From an uncultured delta proteobacterium (lineage in GTDB: Bacteria > Desulfobacterota > RBG-13-43-22), in NCBI GenBank assembly GCA_963790475.1, contig CAWBOS010000015.1, forward strand, positions 192,001 through 256,000: a stretch of DNA of 64,000 nt, written 5' to 3'. Below are positions 42,606 through 55,207 of the stretch, in pieces. How positions within the stretch are numbered: the first letter of the stretch is position 1; the number at the start of each line of letters is the position of its first letter. The notes under the pieces are model-generated. The model was not told the origin of the DNA. It was given only the letters and a program-made list of their open reading frames with translations, and did no database searches. Made by a program: the position numbers and the translations under genes.

Positions 42606-44590
42606 GCCCATCTTCCGCAGTTTGGAGAAAAAATCAAGAAAAACGTGATGAATTTTCAGGAATTGTTAAATGATTTCAAGTCCTGATCTTTGAAAATTGG
42701 ATGTAGTGAAGACCACCCCCTTGCCAGGTGCTGTGGGAACGGAGATAATGGGGTTATGTATCTCCGGCGTGCGACCAAAAAGAAAGGTGGAGCGGAGTAC
42801 GAGAGCTGGCTTTTAGTTGAGTCGGTCCGTACTGCCCGAGGGCCCCGTCAGCGAGTAGTGGCGACGATAGGGAAACTTCCTGGCCTTGATCGGGAAGAGC
42901 GGATAGGTTGGGAGGAGATCGGACGGATTCTTTCCGGAAAGCCTCTACCTGGACCTGAACTGTTTGAGCAGGGGGAAGACCCCCCATCTTGGGCCACGGT
43001 CAATATCCATGGCGTAAGCGTCGAGCGACTCAGAGGCTTCGGCGATGTCTATTTGGGGTTGCTTTTGTGGAACAAACTGGGGCTTGCCAGGTTCTGCCGA
43101 GATCATATTCCTTCCAACCGGGAAGAGATTCCTTGGTCGATCATGGCGTCTATTTTAGTTCTTGGACGCTTTTGCGCCCCATCGTCGGAATTACAGATGG
43201 CCGAGTTTTGGTATGGCCAGACGGCCTTAGACGATCTGCTGGGAGTGGCCGACTATAAGATCAATGAGGATCGGCTTTATCGTGCCCTGGATGCCTTGCT
43301 TCCCCACAAGGATGCCTTAAGCCGTCACCTTCAGGAGCGTTATGGGGAACTGTTCGGCAGTAGCTTTGATTTTTTGTTTTATGACATAACCTCCACCTAT
43401 TTTGAGGGGACCGCCAAGGGCAATGCCCAGGCCAAGAGGGGTTACAGCCGGGACAGTCGTCCAGATTGTCCCCAGGTCTGCATCGGCCTGGTGGCCACCC
43501 GAGAGGGCTTTCCCATAGCCTTTGAGGTTTTTGACGGCAATCGACCGGATGTTACGACGACCCAAGAGATGGTTCAGATGATGGAGGCCAAATACGGCCA
43601 AGCCAACCGGATCTGGGTTATGGATCGCGGCATGGTGAGTGAGGAGAATCTGGAGTTTATGCGCAAAGTCGGTGCCCGCTATTTGGTCGGCACCCCAAAA
43701 GTGATGCTGAAGAAGTTTGAGCAGCAGCTTTTCGAACAGAACTGGGAAGCGGTCCAACCTGGTGTTGAGGTCAAGCTCTGTTGCTCGCCGGAAGGAACGG
43801 ATGAAATCTTTGTCCTGTGCCGGTCTCAAGGCCGGAAGGAGAAAGAAAACGCCATTCTAAACCACTTTTTGACCCGACTGGAAAGCCAACTGGATCACCT
43901 GGCCCGCCAGGCCGAAACCGGCAAGCTCCGAGACAAGCAGAAAGTCGAGCGGAGAATAGGGCGACTGCTGGAACAAAATAAACGTGCGGCCTCGTTGTTC
44001 AATATTACAGTCATAGAGACCGGTACCGGAAAAGACGCACCGCTTTCCCTAGAAGTCAAGAAGAACGAACAACGGCAACAGTGGGCCTTGGAGACCGGCG
44101 GTAGCTACATCCTGCGCACCAACTGGACCGAAAGTGACCCGAAAGTCCTATGGAATACCTACATCCAACTGACGGAAGTGGAAGATTCATTCCGTACCGA
44201 GAAACATGATCTGGGAATGCGACCGATCTTCCATCAAAAACAGGAACGGACCCAGGCTCATATCCTGGTCTGCTTCTTGGCGCTGACTATGTGGCGAACG
44301 CTCCAGCAATGGATGAAAGCCTCGGGACTCGGTACCGCCCCAAGAAAGCTGTTGGAGGAGTTGCGGGAATTGAAATCTTTGGATGTGCTACTACCGGCGC
44401 GGGAGAGAACCCTCCGGCTCAGAATGGTGGCTACTCCCTCAAAGGAACTCAAAGTGCTGCTTCAGAGATTGAAAATTCTGCTCCCCAACAAACCAAAAAT
44501 TATTGAAAATGTAGTGAAGAAAATGCCCTAATTCTTGTCGTAACTATTTGATATCGCGTCTTCCATGCTTTCTAACTGCGGAAGATGGGC
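42606..44590 (+). mobile_element. Complete IS1634-family element
   Basis: TIR GCCCATCTTCCGCAGTT / AACTGCGGAAGATGGGC, flanked by TA on both sides. Confidence 0.9.
42756..44531 (+). CDS. IS1634-family transposase
   Basis: FYDITSTYFEG, GYSRDSRPDCPQV, VMDRGMVSEENL, VEDSFRTEKHDLGMRPIFH. Confidence 0.95.
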   Translation: MYLRRATKKKGGAEYESWLLVESVRTARGPRQRVVATIGKLPGLDREERIGWEEIGRILSGKPLPGPELFEQGEDPPSWATVNIHGVSVERLRGFGDVYLGLLLWNKLGLARFCRDHIPSNREEIPWSIMASILVLGRFCAPSSELQMAEFWYGQTALDDLLGVADYKINEDRLYRALDALLPHKDALSRHLQERYGELFGSSFDFLFYDITSTYFEGTAKGNAQAKRGYSRDSRPDCPQVCIGLVATREGFPIAFEVFDGNRPDVTTTQEMVQMMEAKYGQANRIWVMDRGMVSEENLEFMRKVGARYLVGTPKVMLKKFEQQLFEQNWEAVQPGVEVKLCCSPEGTDEIFVLCRSQGRKEKENAILNHFLTRLESQLDHLARQAETGKLRDKQKVERRIGRLLEQNKRAASLFNITVIETGTGKDAPLSLEVKKNEQRQQWALETGGSYILRTNWTESDPKVLWNTYIQLTEVEDSFRTEKHDLGMRPIFHQKQERTQAHILVCFLALTMWRTLQQWMKASGLGTAPRKLLEELRELKSLDVLLPARERTLRLRMVATPSKELKVLLQRLKILLPNKPKIIENVVKKMP

Positions 44591-44729: not shown

Positions 44730-45275
44730 TTATTTTGAAACGATATATCTGAAGAAGCAGGCGTCGTCGCCCCCGGAGAGGAACTTGGTGATCTCGATGG
44801 TAAGATCGGGATTATAGCCAAAAAGAATCGCCCGGTCGATCCATTTGCAATAGTAGTGGAAATAAGGTTCCAGGCCCAGGTCACAGGCCCCGTCCCGGAT
44901 GAAGCATCGATTGATTGTCAGGGTGAGGTCCTTCCCCTCGATGTTCGGGACGGACGTGTTCGCCGCCGAGGTATCCAGGTCCATATGAACCAGGAAGTTC
45001 TTGAAGGAGAGGGCCAGCCCCCGGGCCTTCACTTTTTCGGCGATCCGTTTGCCCCTCCTCCACCCGAAATCCTCCACGGCTTTTTTGATGATCGCCTCCC
45101 CCTTCCCGATGCCCACCTCGTCGATCACGGTCTTGGCCAAGACCGCAAACATCTGACCCATCAAGGCCGGCATCGGGGTAATAGTCCGGCCGGAGAGCTC
45201 TGCCCTTTCCTTCATCGCCTCTGCCAGGTAGTCCCAGGAAAGGCCCTCACTCTTTTCTTTTTGAATCTCGTCCAT
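44730..45275 (-). CDS. L-2-amino-thiazoline-4-carboxylic acid hydrolase-like (V4R-like) protein
   Basis: AVEDFGWRRG, RCF, YCKWIDRAILFGYNPD, LSGGDDACFFRY. Confidence 0.75.
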   Translation of the reverse strand: MDEIQKEKSEGLSWDYLAEAMKERAELSGRTITPMPALMGQMFAVLAKTVIDEVGIGKGEAIIKKAVEDFGWRRGKRIAEKVKARGLALSFKNFLVHMDLDTSAANTSVPNIEGKDLTLTINRCFIRDGACDLGLEPYFHYYCKWIDRAILFGYNPDLTIEITKFLSGGDDACFFRYIVSK

Positions 45276-45287
45276 GGAAGTCCTCCT

Positions 45288-45626
45288 TTATGGTTTTCTC
45301 ACGACCAGATCTTTGACGACCCGGTCAGGGCTGATGGGCTCGATAGTCACATCCCCCTTCAGCTCCGTTTGGCATAGGAGTCCCGCCTTTCCATTGATCC
45401 TGCCTGTGCACCGGCCGCAGACCCCGAGGGTGCAGGCTGCATGGTCGAAATAAGCGATAGTCGGATCGAGGTGATGGTAGATGTAGTCCAGTGCGTTCAT
45501 GACGCTCATCCCCGTATCGAGGGGAACGGCATAGTCCCGATACGAAGGGGTCTTGTCCGTATGCGGATCAAACCGAAAGAGGTGTACCGTGATCAAGCTC
45601 TGTTTCATAATGGCCTTCCCCATCAT
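45288..45626 (-). CDS. Stand-alone 2Fe-2S protein (SdhB/FrdB N-terminal domain only)
   Basis: FRFDP, SVMNALDYI, ACTLGVCGRC...LLCQ; no 4Fe-4S domain. Confidence 0.85.
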   Translation of the reverse strand: MMGKAIMKQSLITVHLFRFDPHTDKTPSYRDYAVPLDTGMSVMNALDYIYHHLDPTIAYFDHAACTLGVCGRCTGRINGKAGLLCQTELKGDVTIEPISPDRVVKDLVVRKP

Positions 45627-45631
45627 ATCGA

Positions 45632-47425
45632 TTAGTGCTTCCCGCCCGTGTCCGAGTGGGAGAGCATGAGGCGTTTCATCATTTCCAGATAATCGGCGCT
45701 TCCGGCCGGCGGGGTGTCGGCACCGGCGGTAACCGGACGCGTTGTGACGGCAAATAAACCGTCCCGAAAGGTCACGATTGATTCTTTAAGCCAAGTGTCA
45801 TTGTCGGTTTTCGGGTAATCCTGACGGAAGTGGACACCCCGGCTCTCGGTGCGCTCCAGTGCACTCCTGGCTGCCGCCAAGAGCAGGTGGACAATGTTTG
45901 GTAACTCCAAGGCGTCAAGCCATTCCTTATTGTAGGCGCGCGTCTTCCCGGTCACGGCCAAAAAGGGAAGCTCGTCATTCTTTACTCCCTCAAGGAGGGC
46001 AATGAAGTCCCTGAGCTCTTTTTCGGTGCGGATGGGGCCGAGGTGCCTGTGGGCGGCCTCCTGTACTCTGCGCCGGAGGGCGCCGGGTCTCCGTCCCGTT
46101 TTTCTCTTCAGGGGGGCTGAAATCCCGGACTCATGACGGGCAAAGGTATCGGTAGAATGCTTTGAGGTTGCGATTTTCGCGGCGTAGTCGGCAGCGTTCC
46201 TACCGGCATCCCTCCCCTGAACAAGCATCTCGGTGATCGCTGAAAAGACCCGGTTTGCCCCGAAGGCGCCCAAGCAGCACTCTCCTGCGGCAAAAAGCCC
46301 CTGGATGGTTGTCTCGAAGCGTTCGTTGACCACGATCCCACCGTCAAAATATTCCACCGCGGGACCTACCTCGACCGGCTCGTTTTGTTCGAGCATCAGC
46401 GTCCATCGGGTGAGGTCAAGGGCCTTGTACTTCCAGTTGGGGAAGATAAAACCGCCGATCGCCTTCATGGTATCCCAGGGAACATCACCCCTGCTGTAGT
46501 GGACGCCGCCGTTCTTAAAGCCCCGCCCGGCCGCGGCCTCTTTGGCCGAGACGTGGGACAGGAAGCTCTTGTTCCATTCGGTGGTAGTGCCGATCCTGAC
46601 GACATCGGGGTCGTATCCGGCGAGGATGTCTTCTCCCCGGTTGTTAGTGAGGCGTCCCCCGGCAATCAGAGATAGCATATAGGGGGCGATGCTGCCCCGC
46701 CACATTGGCGGATCGTAGAAGACATTGCAGCAGAAAGTGATGAACTCCATATTGCCGATGTCCGCACCCGCCTTGTGGGCGATAGCGATCCCCTCACCGG
46801 AGAGATCCCTCATGCCGGTGGTAGGCTCAAACGCCTTGTGCCAACCCCCGGTGGCCATCACCACGGACCTGGCCCGAATTCGTAAAAAATCGCCCGTCAT
46901 GATGTCCAGCGCAACCCCCCCGACAACCCGGCCGTCCTCCACTACCAGGTCAAGGAGGGCCACGTTTTCGATGAGCGTGACGCCCAACCTTCGCGCCCGT
47001 TTCAGGAGGACATCCATAATCTTGGTACCGGAGGTAAAAATCATCCTCTGGTCGGAGGTCTTGATATCGATACCCCATTCGATGAGCTCTTTCAAGCAGC
47101 CGGGGGCGGCGGCGATGTACTGATCGACAAGACGTCGGTTGTTGAGGTGCCACCCTTGGGTGACGATGTCGTTGTATACCTTTTCGCGGCTGTCGTTGGG
47201 ATCTCCGGTCAAACCTTCAATTTCGCTCATGCTCCTCCCGTCCAGCGTAAAATCGGCCCCCGCCATCGGGGAGGCCCCGGAACGGGCGAGTGGCCCCTTG
47301 GAGAGGAGGATCACCCCCGCGCCACGCTCGACGGCGCAAATGGCGGCCCTAAATCCCGCCCCCCCGCCTCCGACGACGAGAACGTCGATCGAGAGATCAA
47401 GAGCCTTATGGTTACCGGTTCCCAT
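45632..47425 (-). CDS. FAD-dependent oxidoreductase of the SdhA/FrdA/NadB superfamily, non-canonical active site
   Basis: VVGGGGAG, VVMATGG, GLFAAGEC, GANR, ESRGVHFRQDYP. Confidence 0.88.
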   Translation of the reverse strand: MGTGNHKALDLSIDVLVVGGGGAGFRAAICAVERGAGVILLSKGPLARSGASPMAGADFTLDGRSMSEIEGLTGDPNDSREKVYNDIVTQGWHLNNRRLVDQYIAAAPGCLKELIEWGIDIKTSDQRMIFTSGTKIMDVLLKRARRLGVTLIENVALLDLVVEDGRVVGGVALDIMTGDFLRIRARSVVMATGGWHKAFEPTTGMRDLSGEGIAIAHKAGADIGNMEFITFCCNVFYDPPMWRGSIAPYMLSLIAGGRLTNNRGEDILAGYDPDVVRIGTTTEWNKSFLSHVSAKEAAAGRGFKNGGVHYSRGDVPWDTMKAIGGFIFPNWKYKALDLTRWTLMLEQNEPVEVGPAVEYFDGGIVVNERFETTIQGLFAAGECCLGAFGANRVFSAITEMLVQGRDAGRNAADYAAKIATSKHSTDTFARHESGISAPLKRKTGRRPGALRRRVQEAAHRHLGPIRTEKELRDFIALLEGVKNDELPFLAVTGKTRAYNKEWLDALELPNIVHLLLAAARSALERTESRGVHFRQDYPKTDNDTWLKESIVTFRDGLFAVTTRPVTAGADTPPAGSADYLEMMKRLMLSHSDTGGKH

Positions 47426-47645: not shown

Positions 47646-47681
47646 GACCAAAGCCCCAAGCCATTCTTGGGGCTTTTGGTC
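47646..47681. terminator. Terminator-like hairpin
   Basis: GACCAAAGCCCCAAG ccatt CTTGGGGCTTTTGGTC. Confidence 0.6.
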
Positions 47682-47957: not shown

Positions 47958-50120
47958 TCAAACCAAAAGAATTGAAAATACGGCGAGCGCCAACATCGCT
48001 TTTGTCGTTATATCGATGCCTGCCACGGGGATTAATATCAATCCGGCGAGGAGTGAACCTGCACACCCGCCGAGGAGGTCCGCCGAATACAAGGATGAAA
48101 TCACGCTCTTTTGATCTTGAATTTCATAAATGCTGACATAGGCGAAGATACCCGCCACTAAAATTCCTACTACGGCCAGGAGCAATGCAGTCAGGGCTAA
48201 ACCGGATGAAGCGCTCAGCGTTATTTTCATGGTTATGATAAGGGAAAGTAGCACGAATCCAACCAGCAGGCCAACCCCATACCATCTTGCCCGTTTTCGC
48301 CGATTCCTTAAACGGACTATGGATTGATTGATGGCCATTGACCCCAGGGCGAGCCCGGCCATGAAACTCATCAGCAGAATCCCTAGGTCCTGGTAGAGCA
48401 CGCCATGTTTCGCCTGATAGTATAGAATGAGAATCGTTTCCAGCACCATTCCTATGAAGCCGGCAACAGCCACCAGCAAAACACGACGCAAAGACGGCCG
48501 GAGTCGGCTGAGCAGAAAAGCGATGGGAAAACAAATAGTCACCACATATCGAAATGAAGACCTTACCGTCCCTTTGTCAATGAAGGAAGAAAAATCCGAC
48601 CAAGAGATGCGGGGGAAGAACTTAGAAAGCCAGATCATGAAAGCATACCGGTAGCATGCCGGTCTCAAGTCTGTATTCGGCTGCGCCGTTTCTCTCCGCA
48701 ACAAATTCCCGATTTCAAAGAACCGATCGTTATTAAAGAGATATTTAATATAGTTGGCAGAAATTAATCTGGTCCTGAGCCTCCTTTCCTGGAGGCGGCG
48801 GGACATTGCCTCCGGCAGGCCTGACAGAGGATTGCGGGAAGCAGTCACGACATTCGTCGTTCCCGGCAGAAAAAGCACATTGGTAAAAACCGATGTGAGA
48901 GCGCGGTAAATACTTGCCGTACGCCACAGTAACTGAGGACTCCACAGATTCTCGGCCGAGCGGAGCCTGAAGGCCTGGATACCCCCGGAATTCAGTTTTG
49001 CCGCGCACTGTTCAAAAAATTCCCTGGTGTAGAATCGGTTTGTTTGTCCCGATTGCGGTTCCGGCATACCGACCAATATAAGATCGTATGTTCCGCTTTC
49101 TTTAAGAAACAATCGGGGGTCGGCAAAGATGATGCGGACCCGTGGATCCTCGAGCGATTTTTGAATGTCGTCGGGGAGATGCCTGGAAATGAGCTCCAGC
49201 ATCGCCGGATTCAGTTCGACGTAGTCGATTTTTTCCGGACCATGCTGAAGCATTTCTCTTACGGTTCCTTCAATCCCCCCGCCGAGGATCAGGACCTGCC
49301 GCGGATTCTGATGCTGGAGGGCGGCGAGATGGACAAAATATTCGGCCTCTGTTCCTTCCGTCTCAAAGGCCAGGGCATCATTTTCAAAAACAGATATCTG
49401 ATCATAGAGCCTGCTGACGGAAACTCTGCCGTAGGGAGTATCCCTGCTTTCCACCAGGTTGGGGTGGTTCCAGAGGGTCATCTGCCGGTCGAGGAAAGGT
49501 GCGATCCATAGAAGCATCAAGAAAATACCGGCCAATAGGCCCCCTGTCCATCGCCGGGGGGATATTCCGGCCCCTCTCAAAAAGAATAGGGGAACGATAG
49601 CCAGGGCCAGGCCACACACTAAGGCAATCGTGAAATTCTGTACCCCCCATTTGAGGAATAGAGTGGCAAACAAACCGCCGATCAGTCCCCCGGCGCTTTC
49701 AATGGCGTAAGCCACGGCCAGCGTTTTGTCGCTTGATACGTATCTTTTAGCCGACCACTGGAATAAAAGGCCGGACAACAGTCCCGTAGGGAGGAGAGAT
49801 AGGACTACAATCATCAATTGTTGAAGAAGTGAAAGATAAGCGCCGGGCACACCGCCGACCAGGATTCGGCTGGCACGGATGAATATCACCTCCAGAGGAA
49901 GGGTGACAGCGAAGATCATAAAAAGAAAAGCAAGGTGATGAAGGGATGGAAAATAATTCCGGCGGCCGATCAGGGCACCCGAGGCAGTCCAGAACAACCA
50001 CAGGCCAAGGGAAAAAAGGTAAATCAGCTCAACCCCATAGAAGGCAACGTTCAATTCCCGCATCAGAACAACCTGACCGAGAATGGAAATCAGCCCTACG
50101 GAGAGGAGTGGGATGATCAT
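47958..50120 (-). CDS. Polytopic membrane protein with a spermidine-synthase-like (class I SAM-binding) domain
   Basis: About 7 N-terminal TMs, DTPYGRV, VLILGGG, DYVELNP, ADPRLFL, NRFYTREFF, C-terminal TMs with LYSADLLGG. Confidence 0.85.
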   Translation of the reverse strand: MIIPLLSVGLISILGQVVLMRELNVAFYGVELIYLFSLGLWLFWTASGALIGRRNYFPSLHHLAFLFMIFAVTLPLEVIFIRASRILVGGVPGAYLSLLQQLMIVVLSLLPTGLLSGLLFQWSAKRYVSSDKTLAVAYAIESAGGLIGGLFATLFLKWGVQNFTIALVCGLALAIVPLFFLRGAGISPRRWTGGLLAGIFLMLLWIAPFLDRQMTLWNHPNLVESRDTPYGRVSVSRLYDQISVFENDALAFETEGTEAEYFVHLAALQHQNPRQVLILGGGIEGTVREMLQHGPEKIDYVELNPAMLELISRHLPDDIQKSLEDPRVRIIFADPRLFLKESGTYDLILVGMPEPQSGQTNRFYTREFFEQCAAKLNSGGIQAFRLRSAENLWSPQLLWRTASIYRALTSVFTNVLFLPGTTNVVTASRNPLSGLPEAMSRRLQERRLRTRLISANYIKYLFNNDRFFEIGNLLRRETAQPNTDLRPACYRYAFMIWLSKFFPRISWSDFSSFIDKGTVRSSFRYVVTICFPIAFLLSRLRPSLRRVLLVAVAGFIGMVLETILILYYQAKHGVLYQDLGILLMSFMAGLALGSMAINQSIVRLRNRRKRARWYGVGLLVGFVLLSLIITMKITLSASSGLALTALLLAVVGILVAGIFAYVSIYEIQDQKSVISSLYSADLLGGCAGSLLAGLILIPVAGIDITTKAMLALAVFSILLV

Positions 50121-50125
50121 AGACG

Positions 50126-51691
50126 CTATTTGAATTCAGATTCACTAAATACTACGGCCTGAAATGTTGACAGTTGGGCGTGTTGTTTCCAGCATCCCGT
50201 AATCAGGCCGGCCTTGAGGCAGAGATTATCGAGCAATTCTTCACGCTTCCAGCCCTGTTCTGAGGCCACCTGGGGAAGGAAGACGGTGGAATGCTCGTCT
50301 TTGCTCAGGAGAACACCATCCCGCCCGACAACGATATCTCCGGCGCCGGATACTGGCCTCAAGGGGGTCAGAACCGATATTTCAATATCAATTTCATTGA
50401 GTTCATCGGCGGATAGAGGGCTGAAACGTCTATCGTTCAGTGCTGACTGGACGGCCATGGTCCCGACCAGTTTACAGAGGGGCTCATCACCGATGATTCT
50501 GCCGATACACCCGCGCAGTTCGCCCTTTTTCCTGAGTGTGACGAAAACCCCTTGCGGATTCTGCAGATGGGGAGGAAAACCTCTGGCCAAAGGAACCGTA
50601 TCCGTTAAAAGGAGTCGGGATAGGGTTTCCCTGGCCAAGTGAAGCAGGGCCTTCTTATCGGCAGGCCGAAGCTCGCCCGTTGCGGGAGCCGTAGATAATC
50701 GACTTTGGGTGTCACCCCTTATTTTACCCTCTTCCCTGGTCAAGACAACAGCGCCATATCCGACCACACGCGATCGATCGGACATGACGGATGAATCTCC
50801 TGAGTTCGCATAGCTAACGACAACCCCACGTACGGCGCCGAGCCATTTAGCGGCCGCCATGGCGGCCATGATGGGCGCCTCTCCGCAGGCGCAGGTAACG
50901 AGTTGGGCAATACGCCGATCCATTTGGGCCTGGATAGTCGCCTGCAATAAAGCCGGGTCCAACTTGGTCATGATCTCGAGGGTTTTCTTATCAACGGCAG
51001 AGGCATCTTTTGCATTCGGGTAGTGCGAAAGATCGGAACTGGCAACGATCAGGGCCCGTTTGTTCTTTATGGTTTTGGCCAGGGCCTGACCGAAACGGGT
51101 GCACAGAGGTATTGAAGGTGAGCCAACCACCGCGGGAACAATGCGGGCCTTCGGAAAGAGAACCTGGATAAAAGGCACGATAACTTCAACGGAATGCTCC
51201 TGTTCGTGAAGCGATTTATCCAAGGTGCAATCGGCAGGATCCGCCTCCATAAGCGCAGAGACGACCTCTCGATCGATCGCTGCGGTTCCCAGAGGCGTAC
51301 GGAAGCCTTTTCCCGGGTAGAGAGACACTTTTTGGAACGAAGGGCTGGTGTGGTTTGTTCCTAAGATAATGACCACGTCATATTTTTGATTGCTAACCTG
51401 CTGGAATCCGTCAGCACAAATTTGACCGGAAAAGATATATCCGGCGTGGGGAACAATAATGGCCACAGGGCTTTTAACTTTGACAGGAATCGCATCCTGA
51501 AGGAATTTTTCGATAGCGAGTTTCAACCTGGAGGGGGAATCGGAATAGAACTTTCCGGCAACGACCGGGGCGCGAACTTCGGCATCAGAAGCCTTCTCTG
51601 CCTGACAGGCCGACGCAAAGCCGAGACCAATGACGATCAGTATCAGACACCAGGGCATGATTCTCATTTCCAGCCACCTCCTCACCTTCAC
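50126..51691 (-). CDS. amrB: AmmeMemoRadiSam protein B (MEMO1-like) fused to protein A (AMMECR1-like), with N-terminal signal peptide
   Basis: RAPVVAGKFY, PHAGYIFSG, EHSVEV, ASSDLSHY, YANSGD, VVGY; GVFVTL..GELRGCIG, DRRF, FLPQVA. Confidence 0.93.
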   Translation of the reverse strand: MKVRRWLEMRIMPWCLILIVIGLGFASACQAEKASDAEVRAPVVAGKFYSDSPSRLKLAIEKFLQDAIPVKVKSPVAIIVPHAGYIFSGQICADGFQQVSNQKYDVVIILGTNHTSPSFQKVSLYPGKGFRTPLGTAAIDREVVSALMEADPADCTLDKSLHEQEHSVEVIVPFIQVLFPKARIVPAVVGSPSIPLCTRFGQALAKTIKNKRALIVASSDLSHYPNAKDASAVDKKTLEIMTKLDPALLQATIQAQMDRRIAQLVTCACGEAPIMAAMAAAKWLGAVRGVVVSYANSGDSSVMSDRSRVVGYGAVVLTREEGKIRGDTQSRLSTAPATGELRPADKKALLHLARETLSRLLLTDTVPLARGFPPHLQNPQGVFVTLRKKGELRGCIGRIIGDEPLCKLVGTMAVQSALNDRRFSPLSADELNEIDIEISVLTPLRPVSGAGDIVVGRDGVLLSKDEHSTVFLPQVASEQGWKREELLDNLCLKAGLITGCWKQHAQLSTFQAVVFSESEFK

Positions 51692-52929
51692 ATCCAGACA
51701 CCGGCAATCTTATGGTTGCAGAACTTACAGTGACCGCCCTTCACATTCATCTCCAGAATGAAGAAATTCTGTCTTTCCACGACGATTTTTTTGCAATTCG
51801 GACAGTAGGTGTGATTACCCGGATGACCCGGTACATTTCCGACATAAGGATAATGAAGGCCTCTGTTAAGGGCCGTGTCACGGGCACGTTCCAGGGTGGC
51901 AACGGGTGTGGGCGGGAGACTGAGCAGTTGATAGTCGGGATGAAAACGGGTGAAGTGGATCGGGACGTCTGGACCGACTTCCCCCAATATCCAGTTGATC
52001 AACTCCAGGAGCATTTTATCGGAATCATTTAATGTCGGAACGACCAGATTAACGATTTCCAGATGGATGCGGCTTTTGGCTATCTTTTTGATGCTTTTCA
52101 GCACCGGCCTCAGTTCCGCTCCACAGACAGAACGATAAAATTGATCGCTGTAACCCTTAAGGTCAATCTTAATGGCGTCAAGCACTTCGCACATTTCAGC
52201 CAGAGGCGCCTCATTCATGAAACCGCAACTGATCAAAACAGACCGCAGCTTCTGCTTTTTCGCCTCTCGGGCGATGTCCGTCAGGTATTCCGTAAAGACG
52301 GTCGGTTCATTGTAGGTAAAGGCAATGACGGTTGCCTTACTGTCGGAAGCAGCCCTGCTGATCTGCGCCGGCGCCGTATAGGGAACCTTATAATCTTCCG
52401 GCGAGGCCTGGGAGATTTCCCAGTTCTGGCAGAACTTACACTGAAGCGGGCAACCGGAGGTCGCCAGAGAGTAGGCTGCGGCCCCCGGCAGGAAATGATA
52501 GAAAGGCTTTTTTTCTATTGGATCGATATGGATGGATATGGGACGGCCATAGACGAGGCTGCGCAGCTCTCCTTTTATGTTTATTCGAGCGCGGCATTTA
52601 CCCCTCTGTCCGCTTTCGATAACGCATCCGTGAGCGCACAAGAGACATTTAACGATGTTGGCCTGATGGCGATAGGACTTTCCCTTAAGACTTTCCGGAT
52701 TATTGTGGCAGGCTGAACAATCGGCTTTCGCCGAGGCTACCGAAACCCAGTAACGTGCTACGGGAGCGGAGGCGATGATTTCATCTATCTGATTACGCGC
52801 CAGGGCCGCGCCTGAGCCATCGCCAAACAAAAACGCCTTCCAAAGCGGATCGGACAGAACCATACCGGCCCCGCCGGTTATCGAGGCCAGCTTGGCTGCC
52901 AGAGTTAGAAACTTACGTCTTGAGATCAT
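51688..52929 (-). CDS. amrS: AmmeMemoRadiSam radical SAM enzyme with Tat-like signal peptide
   Basis: CLLCAHGC..GKC, DPIEKKPFYHF, GCPLQCKFCQNWEISQ, FTYNEP, HFTRFHPDY, YVGNV, CPNC; N-terminal SRRKFL. Confidence 0.94.
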   Translation of the reverse strand: MISRRKFLTLAAKLASITGGAGMVLSDPLWKAFLFGDGSGAALARNQIDEIIASAPVARYWVSVASAKADCSACHNNPESLKGKSYRHQANIVKCLLCAHGCVIESGQRGKCRARINIKGELRSLVYGRPISIHIDPIEKKPFYHFLPGAAAYSLATSGCPLQCKFCQNWEISQASPEDYKVPYTAPAQISRAASDSKATVIAFTYNEPTVFTEYLTDIAREAKKQKLRSVLISCGFMNEAPLAEMCEVLDAIKIDLKGYSDQFYRSVCGAELRPVLKSIKKIAKSRIHLEIVNLVVPTLNDSDKMLLELINWILGEVGPDVPIHFTRFHPDYQLLSLPPTPVATLERARDTALNRGLHYPYVGNVPGHPGNHTYCPNCKKIVVERQNFFILEMNVKGGHCKFCNHKIAGVWM

Positions 52930-52974: not shown

Positions 52975-53065
52975 GATAGTATAAGGGAAATATCAACTGC
53001 AAGTCAATGAGAAGAAATGGGAAGGCAAGGAGGCGGGGGTCTTAGGAGGAAAATGTAGTTCTGGA
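52975..53065 (-). promoter_or_regulatory. Repeated promoter element, diverged copy C
   Basis: Minus strand TTGACT-18-TATACT; plus strand TCAATGAGAAGAAATGGGAA...GGGGTCTT...GAAAATG. Confidence 0.45.
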
Positions 53066-53374: not shown

Positions 53375-55207
53375 ATGGAATTTAAATATGATGTAAGAGA
53401 TTTAAAGTTTATTCTAAAAGAATGGCTGCCCACGGATGAAGTGACCGCCTGTGATCGATTCAAAGAGACCTTCAGTGTCGACGATGTGGATATGCTTTTA
53501 ACCGAAGGTTATAAGGTGGCCCGGGAAATCATTAATCCGATCAACGCCCCGGGGGATAAGATCGGGGTCAAATTCGAAAACGGCCAATCCATCCCTCCGC
53601 CGGGATTCAAAGAGGCCTACCAATTCTTACAACAGAACGGTTGGGGCACCAGCAGTGAGTGCATCATGGTGGAAACGGGAATGCCCTTGATCATATACAA
53701 AGCCATCTTCGAAATGAACACCGCCGCCTGCACATCCCTCATGTCGGCGATCAAGCTGACCAGCGGGGTATCCAACCTTCTGCTCCGCTTCGGGAGAGCA
53801 AAAGGACAAGTACCTCTTCCTTCCCAAGTTGTTCTCCGGCGAATGGCAGGGAACCATGTGCATCACCGAGCCGAACTACGGCTCCGACGCCGGAGACATG
53901 ATTTCCAGATCCTTTCCTACGGATGATCCGCACCTGTTTAAGATCAAAGGCACCAAGATGTTTATTACCTGCGGCGACCAGGGCCAGTGTGAAAACACGA
54001 TTCATATGGTCCTGGCCAGGACCCAGGGAGGGGCTCCGGGTTCGGCCGGTATCGGGCTTTACATCGTTCCCAAGATATGGGTTAACGAGGACGGTTCTTT
54101 GGGAGAACCCAATGATGTGACCACCATCGGCCTGGAACATAAAATGGGTCTCAAAGGTCAGGCCACGGCCCTGCTCAATTTCGGTGAAAACGACCGGTGT
54201 TACGGTATCCTGGTCGGCGACTCCTCCGGACGAGAAGGGTGTGTCCAAGGGATTGTCCATGATGTTTCACATGATGAATGAATCCAGGATCGGTACAGGC
54301 CACAACTCGAATTCCCAGGCGGCCGCATCTTACTATTACGCTTCCCAGTACGCCACGGAGCGGATTCAAGGCCGGCCCTTTCGGCATCCGGGACGCCGAA
54401 CGGGTTCCTATCATCCAACACGAGGACATCCGCAGGATGCTCCTGGACATGAAGGCCCATGTGGAAGGAATCCGGGCCATGACCTTCAAGGGTTTTTATT
54501 ATCTCGATATCCAGGCCAACAGCAGCGATCAAGCCAAAGCCAAACAGTGCGGCCAGTTTGCTGAAATATTAACCCCTCTGGTTAAGGGGTACGGCAGCGA
54601 AGCCTCCCTGGGGGTTATTGCCCAGGCCATGCAGGTTTTCGGCGGCGTGGGCTACACCCAGGAATATCCCGTGGAACAATACCTGCGGGACTCGAAGATT
54701 CTGACCATCTGGGAAGGGACCACCTACATTCATGCTCAGGACCTCATCAACCGCAAAATGCGAATGGACGGCGGGAAACCCTTCAAGGACTGGATGGCCG
54801 GCATCAAGGCCTTTATTGATTCCAATGCCAAGGCCGAGGGGTTCGAGAAAGAAATGGACAAGCTCGCCCGGGGTTACCAGTGTCTGGCTGAGGTGGTGGC
54901 CATCTACGATTCCTGGTACAACAACCTGGAAGTTAAACGTCCTCTCATACCGCTTTATGCCGTACGGGCCTTATTCGTCTGCGCCCAGGTGAAAGTAGCC
55001 AAATGCCTTATGGAGCATGCTCTGATCGCCAAAGAAAAGCTGGTTCGAGCTGAAGGCGTTGAGGCTACCTTCTACCAGGGAAAAATCGCCTCGGCCCGTT
55101 ATTTTCTGAACAACATCCTGCCCAATGTGTATTTAACAACGGAAATAATCAGAGATGCGGATACGACTGTCCTGGATTGTCCCGGGGAAGCATTGATCGT
55201 CAGATAG
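53375..55207 (+). pseudogene. Acyl-CoA dehydrogenase split by three +1 frameshifts
   Basis: Consecutive ORFs carry GTMCITEPNYGSD, GTKMFIT, EHKMGLKG, MFHMMNESRIG, QVFGGVGYTQEYPVEQYLRD, IWEGTT. Confidence 0.88.

Follow-up and report, generated by a model that had tools for sequence, protein, structure and literature searches.

Can a radical S-adenosylmethionine (SAM) enzyme work on the outer side of the cytoplasmic membrane? Radical SAM enzymes are treated as strictly cytoplasmic, with their need for iron-sulfur assembly, SAM and a strong reductant. The question is raised by a three-gene operon of an uncultured delta proteobacterium, located on contig CAWBOS010000015.1 at positions 192001-256000 (G000:C15 in our numbering), a stretch of 64,000 nucleotides (nt) that we call the window and whose positions are used throughout. 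The operon is a variant of the known but uncharacterised AmmeMemoRadiSam system, and consists of three co-directional open reading frames (ORFs) on the minus strand, at 51688-52929 (413 amino acids), 50126-51691 (521 amino acids if read from a GTG) and 47958-50120 (720 amino acids), encoding the radical SAM enzyme AmrS, an AmrB-AmrA fusion and a membrane protein referred to below as gene 3. In our view the three products probably form an outward-facing complex, in which AmrB-AmrA is anchored to lipid and which acts on a molecule transported or presented by the major facilitator superfamily (MFS) part of gene 3. The computed support consists of conserved signals, a topology bias, a predicted complex, gene linkage and gene fusions. 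The parts of the operon are as follows, with the evidence for each in brackets:

51688..52929, minus strand: amrS, AmmeMemoRadiSam radical SAM enzyme, 413 amino acids (TIGR04337, 361.2 bits over residues 89-412)
52798..52929, minus strand: twin-arginine translocation (Tat)-like leader of AmrS, residues 1-44, with A-L-A at its end (conservation of the twin-arginine motif, codon changes, AlphaFold2)
52666..52719, minus strand: CxxCH (Cys71, Cys74, His75) and a conserved His88 in a 33-residue insert, candidate heme c site (homolog alignment)
50126..51667, minus strand: amrB-amrA fusion (Memo-like plus AMMECR1), 513 amino acids from ATG 51667, the ORF being open from GTG 51691 (Memo and AMMECR1 domains)
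51605..51667, minus strand: putative Sec-type or lipoprotein signal of AmrB-AmrA, with a FASAC box at its end (hydrophobic N-terminus, lipobox pattern)
47958..50120, minus strand: gene 3, membrane protein of predicted 14-helix MFS fold with an inserted spermidine-synthase-like domain, 720 amino acids (AlphaFold2, fold comparison)
48570..49472, minus strand: spermidine-synthase-like domain of gene 3, residues 217-517, predicted to be periplasmic and to dock AmrS (loop charges, complex model)

AmrS passes the TIGR04337 model well above its cut-off of 220 bits, with a match that begins only at residue 89, and scores 66 bits with PF04055. Its CxxxCxxC cluster motif (Cys160, Cys164 and Cys167) is invariant in 83 sequences, and two further sets of cysteines are invariant as well (Cys95/98/102/112 and Cys376/379/401/404). 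An AlphaFold2 model built with 83 sequences has a mean predicted local distance difference test score (pLDDT) of 91, and its nearest solved fold is that of pyruvate formate-lyase (PFL) activase, 3cb8, with a TM-score of 0.79 over the target, while the score with the curated PFL activase model (57.8 bits) is far under the cut-off of 231.75.

What precedes the enzyme core resembles a Tat leader. An earlier note on this DNA, written from the sequence alone, had said that the N-terminus fits a twin-arginine consensus ending in A-L-A, and the motif is indeed there: residues 3-8 read S-R-R-K-F-L and residues 42-44 A-L-A, in line with the Tat consensus, S/T-R-R-x-F-L-K, after which come weakly hydrophobic residues and then an A-x-A site. 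The twin arginine (RR) recurs in 118 of the 120 best AmrS homologs (66-100% identity), the two exceptions being different start calls. The N-terminal extension is thus conserved, and the true start does not lie downstream of it: Met1 is the first start codon in the open frame, and in comparison with each of two orthologs of 87-88% identity leader codons 26-44 show six synonymous and no non-synonymous changes, while in codons 1-25 second codon positions change once, so that the leader is translated and under purifying selection. AlphaFold2 predicts a helix at residues 4-25, then a low-confidence linker in which residues 38-42 have pLDDT below 50, and a segment around A-R-Y-W (58-61) that packs on the core with pLDDT 96; this succession of order and disorder fits cleavage of the leader after A-L-A, at residue 44. 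Among the 53 RR leaders of the window and its related loci, 27 match the Tat signal model TIGR01409 at E <= 0.05 (best 1.1e-05), the window's own not being one of them; of the related leaders, six match a formate dehydrogenase Tat model and one a hydrogenase small-subunit model. Searched alone against Pfam and NCBIfam, the window's leader gave only sub-threshold matches (Rieske Tat signal PF10399, E 0.2; Tll0287-like, E 0.1). The genome has two TatC matches, of 251.4 and 154.8 bits.

The second protein carries a signal of a different kind. AmrB-AmrA contains a Memo domain (199.7 bits) and an AMMECR1 domain (167.2 bits), passes both TIGR04336 (243 bits, cut-off 26) and TIGR04335 (170.1 bits, cut-off 99), and keeps in its AmrB domain all positions aligned to the His, His, Asp/His and Cys sites of MEMO1, which act as metal ligands. 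Its start most likely lies at ATG 51667, since this codon is preceded by an AGGAGG 9 nt upstream and coincides with the starts of homologs; the protein would then have 513 amino acids, and a 20-nt spacer would follow amrS. The three genes had been described as tightly coupled by a 4-nt overlap and a 5-nt gap: the gap, between AmrB-AmrA and gene 3, stands, whereas the overlap depends on GTG 51691 and gives way to the spacer. The hydrophobic signal up to the FASAC box, also part of the earlier description, is unaffected by the corrected start. A hydrophobic N-terminus is shared by 116 of the 120 best AmrB-AmrA homologs and by all 37 fused AmrB-AmrA proteins of the related genome loci, and a PROSITE-like lipobox pattern, a Cys after a hydrophobic stretch, fits the window protein and 94 of the 120 homologs. 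AmrB-AmrA is probably a lipoprotein anchored to lipid, although signal peptidase I may instead cleave it after A-S-A.

Gene 3 had been called a polytopic membrane protein with a SAM-binding domain, and methyltransferase-like. Its AlphaFold2 model (24 sequences; pLDDT 87.5, predicted TM-score 0.88) has seven helices, a soluble domain at about residues 222-500 and seven more helices. The soluble domain is better described as spermidine-synthase-like, and the protein as a whole as an MFS fold with such a domain inserted, than as a methyltransferase. In a comparison with 48,161 solved chains, gene 3 matches spermidine synthase 1uir with Z 30.4 over 271 aligned residues (root mean square deviation, rmsd, 2.2) and the MFS member VMAT2 (9kqa) with Z 29.0 over 324 aligned residues (rmsd 3.2), in a two-lobe MFS fold; many other MFS chains, such as SotB, NarK and FLVCR, match at Z 21-28. 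PF01564 (Spermine_synth) gives 77.5 bits, and the protein falls under every curated SpeE cut-off (116.4 against 472, 98.6 against 260 and 87 against 249.55 bits) as well as under that of NF037959, "fused MFS/spermidine synthase" (29.2 against 40 bits). Aligned to Thermus SpeE, it keeps the glycine motif (GGG) and two acidic residues of the nucleotide pocket, Glu302 and Asp334, but not the acidic catalytic stretch: G-M-P-E-P stands in place of D-L-T-D-P of 3anx, an instance of the acidic catalytic motif D-x-x-D-P of SpeE, and the Glu is not conserved in the 24 homologs. Arg336, Arg362 and Asp484 are invariant across these homologs. We read the domain, from this pattern of residues, as adenosyl-binding and not as an aminopropyltransferase.

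The side of the membrane on which this domain lies was read from loop charges, with the AlphaFold2 helices taken as membrane spans and Lys and Arg counted in the short loops of 24 homologs. In all 24, the side of the N-terminus has 9-27 such residues and the other side 3-8, and the soluble domain is on the poor side, so that by the positive-inside rule it is predicted to be periplasmic. A topology drawn from hydropathy only had missed helices and was superseded by this count.

A model of mature AmrS (residues 45-413) with the gene 3 domain (217-517) supports binding of the one to the other. Three runs scored 0.89, 0.90 and 0.89, the best of three controls scoring 0.00; the mark applied to such scores is reached by 58 of 80 solved complexes and by 2 of 110 mismatched pairs, counts that hold only roughly here, as own alignments were used. 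Contacts agree between runs to at least 93%, and pLDDT of the partners is at least 86. On AmrS the predicted interface is the face next to the cluster loop, with Gln168, Asn169 and Trp170, which are invariant and directly follow Cys167, and in addition Tyr206, Pro298, Pro331, Tyr333, the L-P-P-x-P at 338-342 and residues 366-368; conservation averages 0.76 on this face and 0.66 in the remainder of the core. On gene 3 it comprises the N-terminal hairpins at 236-257, Asn391, Tyr457, Arg466 and Phe501, and not the nucleotide pocket. If the gene 3 domain is periplasmic and if it binds AmrS, as the two predictions have it, AmrS should be periplasmic too, and the outward domain taken together with the modelled complex is evidence that is independent of the leader. 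A comparable solved complex is not known to us.

Between the A-R-Y-W strand and the first Cys motif, AmrS has a 33-residue insert that holds exactly one CxxCH in 63 of the 120 best homologs, and in at least 61 of these 63 a His follows 13 residues past it; the other 57 have inserts of 10-18 residues and no CxxCH. The motif is present in 20 of the 80 related loci described below, which belong to several phyla and all have an RR leader. A CxxCH with a His at a fixed distance is the classic pattern of bis-His heme c. The AlphaFold2 confidence of the insert is moderate (about 70), AmrS residues 1-93 match no cytochrome family of Pfam at E <= 10, and the genome has two matches to cytochrome c assembly genes. 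Provided that the complex does face outward, a covalent bis-His heme c site formed by CxxCH and His88 is a candidate to which we give slightly less than an even chance.

Distant relatives of AmrS have other redox parts at hand. Their neighbours include FMN_bind proteins, NapH-like membrane proteins with FMN_bind and Fer4_5, DsbD_2 proteins and DUF362 proteins with a Tat leader, and AmrS is naturally fused to DsbD_2 (P0243, P0260), to FMN_bind plus Fer4_5 (P0244, P0261), to FMN_bind behind a single N-terminal helix (P0246) and to DsbD_2, FMN_bind and Fer4_5 in one four-part protein (P0274). A further fusion joins a signal, Memo, AMMECR1 and AmrS (P0287). In P0261, P0244 and P0274 an extra helix comes after the last Lys/Arg-rich loop, a loop with a C-x3-C-P motif, and by hand reading of the loop charges it would return the chain to the FMN_bind side before AmrS begins. 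Two more fusions begin with a membrane helix and join AmrS to either a CBM_11-like carbohydrate-binding module (P0255) or a beta-propeller (P0257), a hint that in some lineages the substrate is a glycan or lies on the surface. Meheust et al. 2021 (PMC8238504) describe NapH-like proteins whose FMN-binding domain is extracytosolic as a modular transmembrane electron route, and cytochromes and flavinylated parts as substituting for each other in related systems; a CxxCH in the window's AmrS and FMN_bind elsewhere would fit such a replacement. The main text of that paper has no mention of Memo, AMMECR or "radical SAM".

How widely do the leaders, AmrB-AmrA and gene 3 travel together? A scan of one genome per species gave 80 related loci, from Desulfobacterota-like, Acidobacteriota, Latescibacterota, Ignavibacteria-like, Fibrobacter-like, Aminicenantes, Omnitrophota, Planctomycetota, Chloroflexi and other lineages. 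By our own rules the N-terminus of AmrS is of the RR type in 52 of them, hydrophobic without RR in 15 and neither in 13. Where at least 4.5 kilobases are available on both sides (36 loci), relatives of gene 3 are found in 22 and AmrB-AmrA in 20, gene 3 being distributed as 15 of 24 RR loci, 1 of 5 hydrophobic and 6 of 7 neither. An all-against-all comparison of the ORFs of the 80 loci found nothing that recurs in the window's subclade beyond the three operon genes. Within the window's own order, represented by 21 genomes of one family, a full-length leader-type AmrS occurs in five, and in all five AmrB-AmrA and gene 3 lie next to it, on one contig and in the same orientation. Relatives of gene 3 are seen in eight of the nine genomes with an extended AmrS frame and in none of the 12 without one, these being kin genomes and not independent; in genome G002, the one read of four intermediate extended frames, the RR motif is present. 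The earlier note had asked whether leader-bearing AmrS, signal-bearing AmrB-AmrA and gene 3 co-occur, and they do so across phyla and in the window's own family. A broader survey took the 150 best representatives of clusters at 50% identity, of which 135 have the core motif: 77 of these have a short leaderless N-terminus and 58 an extended one, with RR within the first 60 residues in 29 of the 58.

Two side observations concern these collections. In four AmrS cluster representatives (P0305, P0331, P0344 and P0362) an intein interrupts the radical SAM domain, and three of these (P0305, P0331 and P0362) have a LAGLIDADG endonuclease domain as well. The operon of a close relative (locus L028, 7001-11990; 80% identity) is broken into many short frames in all three genes, reflecting either decay or a low-accuracy assembly.

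In five of the leaderless loci (L031 6334-7032, L060 6409-6999, L065 5221-5430, L062 6244-7005 and L032 6304-6801), the equivalent of the A-R-Y-W strand is found at the end of the upstream ORF, which has a hydrophobic N-terminal segment or an FMN-binding domain. The AmrS core begins at the stop of that ORF or slightly before it, the overlap being 8 nt in L031 and L060 and only a few nt in L065. From the arrangement of the frames, this looks like a split gene whose parts are perhaps exported together.

Elsewhere in the genome there is one more copy each of AmrS and AmrB-AmrA. The second AmrS (contig C12, 519439-520430) begins with the N-terminal strand of the family and has no leader; it is split into two frames near residue 120 by a frameshift, its orthologs being intact at 338-348 amino acids in the same neighbourhood. 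Among the other genomes with a leader-type operon, G016 likewise has a broken second AmrS, while G009 and G013 do not. The second AmrB-AmrA (contig C6; locus L088, 1663-3171) is of a type found in most genomes of the family. It has a signal-like upstream extension of 39 codons with an ATG, which is not conserved, G015 having a similar open extension. Export of this protein was considered and dropped: the start shared by orthologs is further downstream, and in three of the six orthologs read a stop codon interrupts the frame 8-12 codons before it. The conserved form thus has no signal. Since neither the second AmrS nor the conserved second AmrB-AmrA has a leader, the leaders are specific to the operon that contains gene 3. 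For the same reason, an argument against a nucleic-acid target that had been drawn from export narrows to the leader-bearing paralogous set, as the genome retains a leaderless AmrS and another AmrB-AmrA at other loci.

These data suggest the following course of events. AmrS would fold and receive its iron-sulfur clusters in the cytoplasm, and Tat would export it folded by means of the 44-residue twin-arginine leader; AmrB-AmrA would be exported by Sec and probably anchored to lipid. Outside, the periplasmic spermidine-synthase-like domain of gene 3 would hold AmrS by its active-site face, and the complex would modify a small molecule or a lipid that the MFS part lets through or presents. More speculatively, electrons may enter AmrS through heme c at Cys71/Cys74/His75 in the window's subclade, relatives using outward-facing FMN-binding, NapH-like or DsbD-like modules instead, and gene 3 may in addition bring SAM to the outer side. 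For the last of these roles, which presupposes the outward-facing complex, we see a real but rather doubtful case; rated below it is the idea that gene 3 is itself the substrate of AmrS, which is suggested by the resemblance of AmrS to PFL activase and by its docking to gene 3 with the substrate face. An entirely self-sufficient periplasmic radical SAM machine, with Tat-exported AmrS, heme attached after export, wiring to the periplasmic cytochromes of an anaerobe and the active site placed on the outward domain of an MFS protein that exports SAM and passes either this or the substrate to the enzyme, is in our estimate unlikely.

Several observations weigh against an outward-facing complex. 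SAM and low-potential reductants are known only in the cytoplasm. The window's own leader scores 8.4 bits with TIGR01409, under the cut-off of 16.7 (E 2.9). Apocytochromes c are usually exported unfolded through Sec, which conflicts with a Tat leader and a heme site in one protein, and the AmrS leader, being Tat-like and not Sec-like, does not follow this usual route of a c-type cytochrome. The predicted interface of gene 3 is no more conserved than the rest of its domain (0.48 against 0.50), and the topology of gene 3 derives from the positive-inside rule applied to a model. Among the 80 loci, 15 have an AmrS with a Sec-like N-terminus without RR, mostly beside DsbD_2 and not gene 3, and such an N-terminus is hard to square with an iron-sulfur enzyme, which would have to be matured after Sec export; in 13 more the AmrS ORF itself has no leader. 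Finally, in at least one fusion, P0258, the anchor helix is followed by more positive charge than precedes it, as would be expected if AmrS faced the cytoplasm. The computational checks suggested in the earlier note (conserved extensions, start sites, co-occurrence) came out for export. The earlier proposal of periplasmic radical chemistry on an envelope substrate is partly supported, by the conserved leaders, the outward gene 3 domain, the complex model and the fusions, with the sub-threshold Tat score on the other side.

Some of the same observations would be explained by a relay across the membrane, in which AmrS does not leave the cytoplasm, its leader perhaps tethering it to the inner face, and modifies a small molecule that the MFS part of gene 3 exports and that the outer gene 3 domain and AmrB-AmrA then finish. 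Such a relay would leave the enzyme where SAM and reductants are established to be; it would put the transporter fold of gene 3 to use, and it would accommodate both a leader under the TIGR01409 cut-off and the 13 loci in which AmrS has none on its ORF, yet AmrB-AmrA has one wherever it is present. It accounts poorly for a near-invariant RR motif and for a CxxCH insert that is sensible only outside the cytoplasm; the predicted docking of AmrS to the gene 3 domain on the Lys/Arg-poor side, the fusions that place AmrS on the FMN_bind side and the five leaderless loci in which the missing strand is carried by an upstream ORF with a hydrophobic segment or an FMN-binding domain also speak against it, and we consider it improbable.

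Another possibility keeps AmrS outside and changes the fate of its leader, which would be inserted by Tat, remain uncleaved and anchor the enzyme to the outer face by gene 3, with CxxCH binding a metal or a further iron-sulfur centre. The leader is conserved beyond RR, with glycine-rich and S-D-P stretches in most homologs, which is unusual for a cleaved signal; Tat substrates receive their cofactors before export, and this favours an iron-sulfur or metal site over heme c; and the model confidence of the insert is only about 70. However, a stable anchor would be expected to be more hydrophobic than this leader, whose most hydrophobic 12 residues have a mean Kyte-Doolittle value of only about 1.6; there is an A-x-A site ahead of the ordered part of AmrS; and CxxCH with a His at fixed distance is the classic bis-His heme c pattern, in a genome that has assembly genes; on balance such an anchor seems to us quite unlikely. 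That the leaders are an annotation artefact, with real starts downstream and leader-like sequences untranslated or due to chance, we regard as extremely improbable: some public gene calls do begin at internal methionines (AmrS P0009, AmrB-AmrA P0121), and frameshifts occur elsewhere in the assembly, but the leader keeps its amino acids in different phyla and shows synonymous changes between close orthologs, the open AmrS frame has no start codon ahead of Met1, and the signal of AmrB-AmrA survives the corrected start.

The surroundings of the operon contribute two candidate regulatory sites:

52978..53007, minus strand: candidate promoter of sigma-70 type, about 48 nt before the start of AmrS (TTGACT, 18-nt spacer, TATACT; 10 of 12 matches)
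47650..47676, minus strand: terminator-like hairpin about 280 nt past gene 3 (11-pair stem with 6 G-C pairs; weak T tract)

Promoter-like and terminator-like sites are no more frequent in the region than in shuffled sequence, and both remain candidates that bracket the three genes. Downstream, the minus strand at 44730-47425 encodes a fumarate-reductase-like flavoprotein (597 amino acids), a small 2Fe-2S protein (112) and an ATC-hydrolase-like protein (181), none of which was seen repeatedly next to the operon in related loci. On the plus strand at 42690-44531, about 3.4 kilobases downstream of the operon, there is a DDE-type transposase gene (PF01609); with this transposase nearby and presence in five of 21 genomes of the family, the operon may be mobile or often lost. 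A divergent acyl-CoA dehydrogenase gene on the plus strand (53375-55207) is divided into three overlapping frames (53375-53926, 53829-54281 and 54278-55207), with its middle and C-terminal domains in separate ORFs, and is either a pseudogene or affected by assembly indel errors.

A literature search that did not extend to Burroughs et al. 2019 or to the supplementary material of Meheust et al. found no description of an exported AmmeMemoRadiSam system of this kind. In titles and the openings of abstracts, "AmmeMemoRadiSam" receives only passing mentions. Phrase searches returned no periplasmic, extracytoplasmic, exported, secreted or extracellular radical SAM; for periplasmic SAM, the matches listed contained only "periplasmic sam..." as in "samples"; Tat combined with CXXCH gave only an unrelated match; and "radical SAM" with "twin-arginine" and "periplasmic" gave none on topic by title or abstract, the one paper checked naming a radical SAM gene only as a neighbour. 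The CxxCH insert is new here. Memo contexts are reportedly linked to nucleotide-base and isoprenoid modification, in the abstract of Burroughs et al. 2019 (J Biol Chem). The same work is cited elsewhere for "Memo-Ammecr1 systems", and may describe these contexts.

If the self-sufficient machine were true, it would be the first SAM-dependent radical chemistry, and have the first SAM supply line, outside the bacterial cytoplasm, and its AmrS would be a Tat substrate that naturally carries heme c. The branch of the family described here, large and spread over several phyla, with conserved export signals, outward electron modules and a transporter-like partner, would pose the question of how SAM and electrons reach the periplasm. 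The Memo/AMMECR1/radical SAM trio, which has human disease-linked homologs, would gain a tractable handle in a membrane or envelope substrate and a defined complex, and the heme-like insert is a directly testable prediction.

Comparison with known systems places the operon closest to canonical AmmeMemoRadiSam. All three defining models (TIGR04337, TIGR04336 and TIGR04335) are passed above their cut-offs, and the operon retains the AMMECR1 domain, the ligand positions aligned to MEMO1 and the invariant Cys motifs. Unlike the canonical system, the window has an AmrS with an 88-residue N-terminal extension made up of leader and CxxCH insert, an export signal on the fused B-A protein and an MFS/spermidine-synthase-like partner. 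In fold and sequence, AmrS is nearest among solved structures to the PFL activating enzyme (PDB 3cb8, 8fo0), which binds a loop of its substrate protein over the cluster-side face, the same face that AmrS is predicted to use for gene 3; in contrast to it, AmrS has two extra four-Cys motifs and a leader, and no glycyl radical enzyme is encoded near its operon. With iron-sulfur Tat substrates, such as hydrogenase small subunits and formate dehydrogenases, it shares a twin-arginine leader on a cofactor-loaded redox enzyme, although these need no cytoplasmic co-substrate, whereas a radical SAM enzyme uses SAM at each turnover. The flavinylated extracytosolic systems share with distant AmrS relatives the adjoining or fused FMN_bind, Fer4_5 and DsbD_2 parts, while the window operon is without FMN_bind, NapH-like or DsbD_2 modules. 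The soluble domain of gene 3 shares its fold, glycine motif and two acidic pocket residues with SpeE (PDB 1uir, 3anx), and differs from SpeE and from NF037959 proteins in being inserted between two seven-helix halves and in its predicted outward orientation. For an MFS protein that brings SAM to a non-cytosolic compartment the one precedent found is a proposal in plants: a preprint (bioRxiv 10.1101/2021.07.06.451061) proposes that the MFS members GoSAMT import SAM into the Golgi, and gene 3, which unlike these eukaryotic proteins carries a fused enzyme domain, is likened to them by shared superfamily only.

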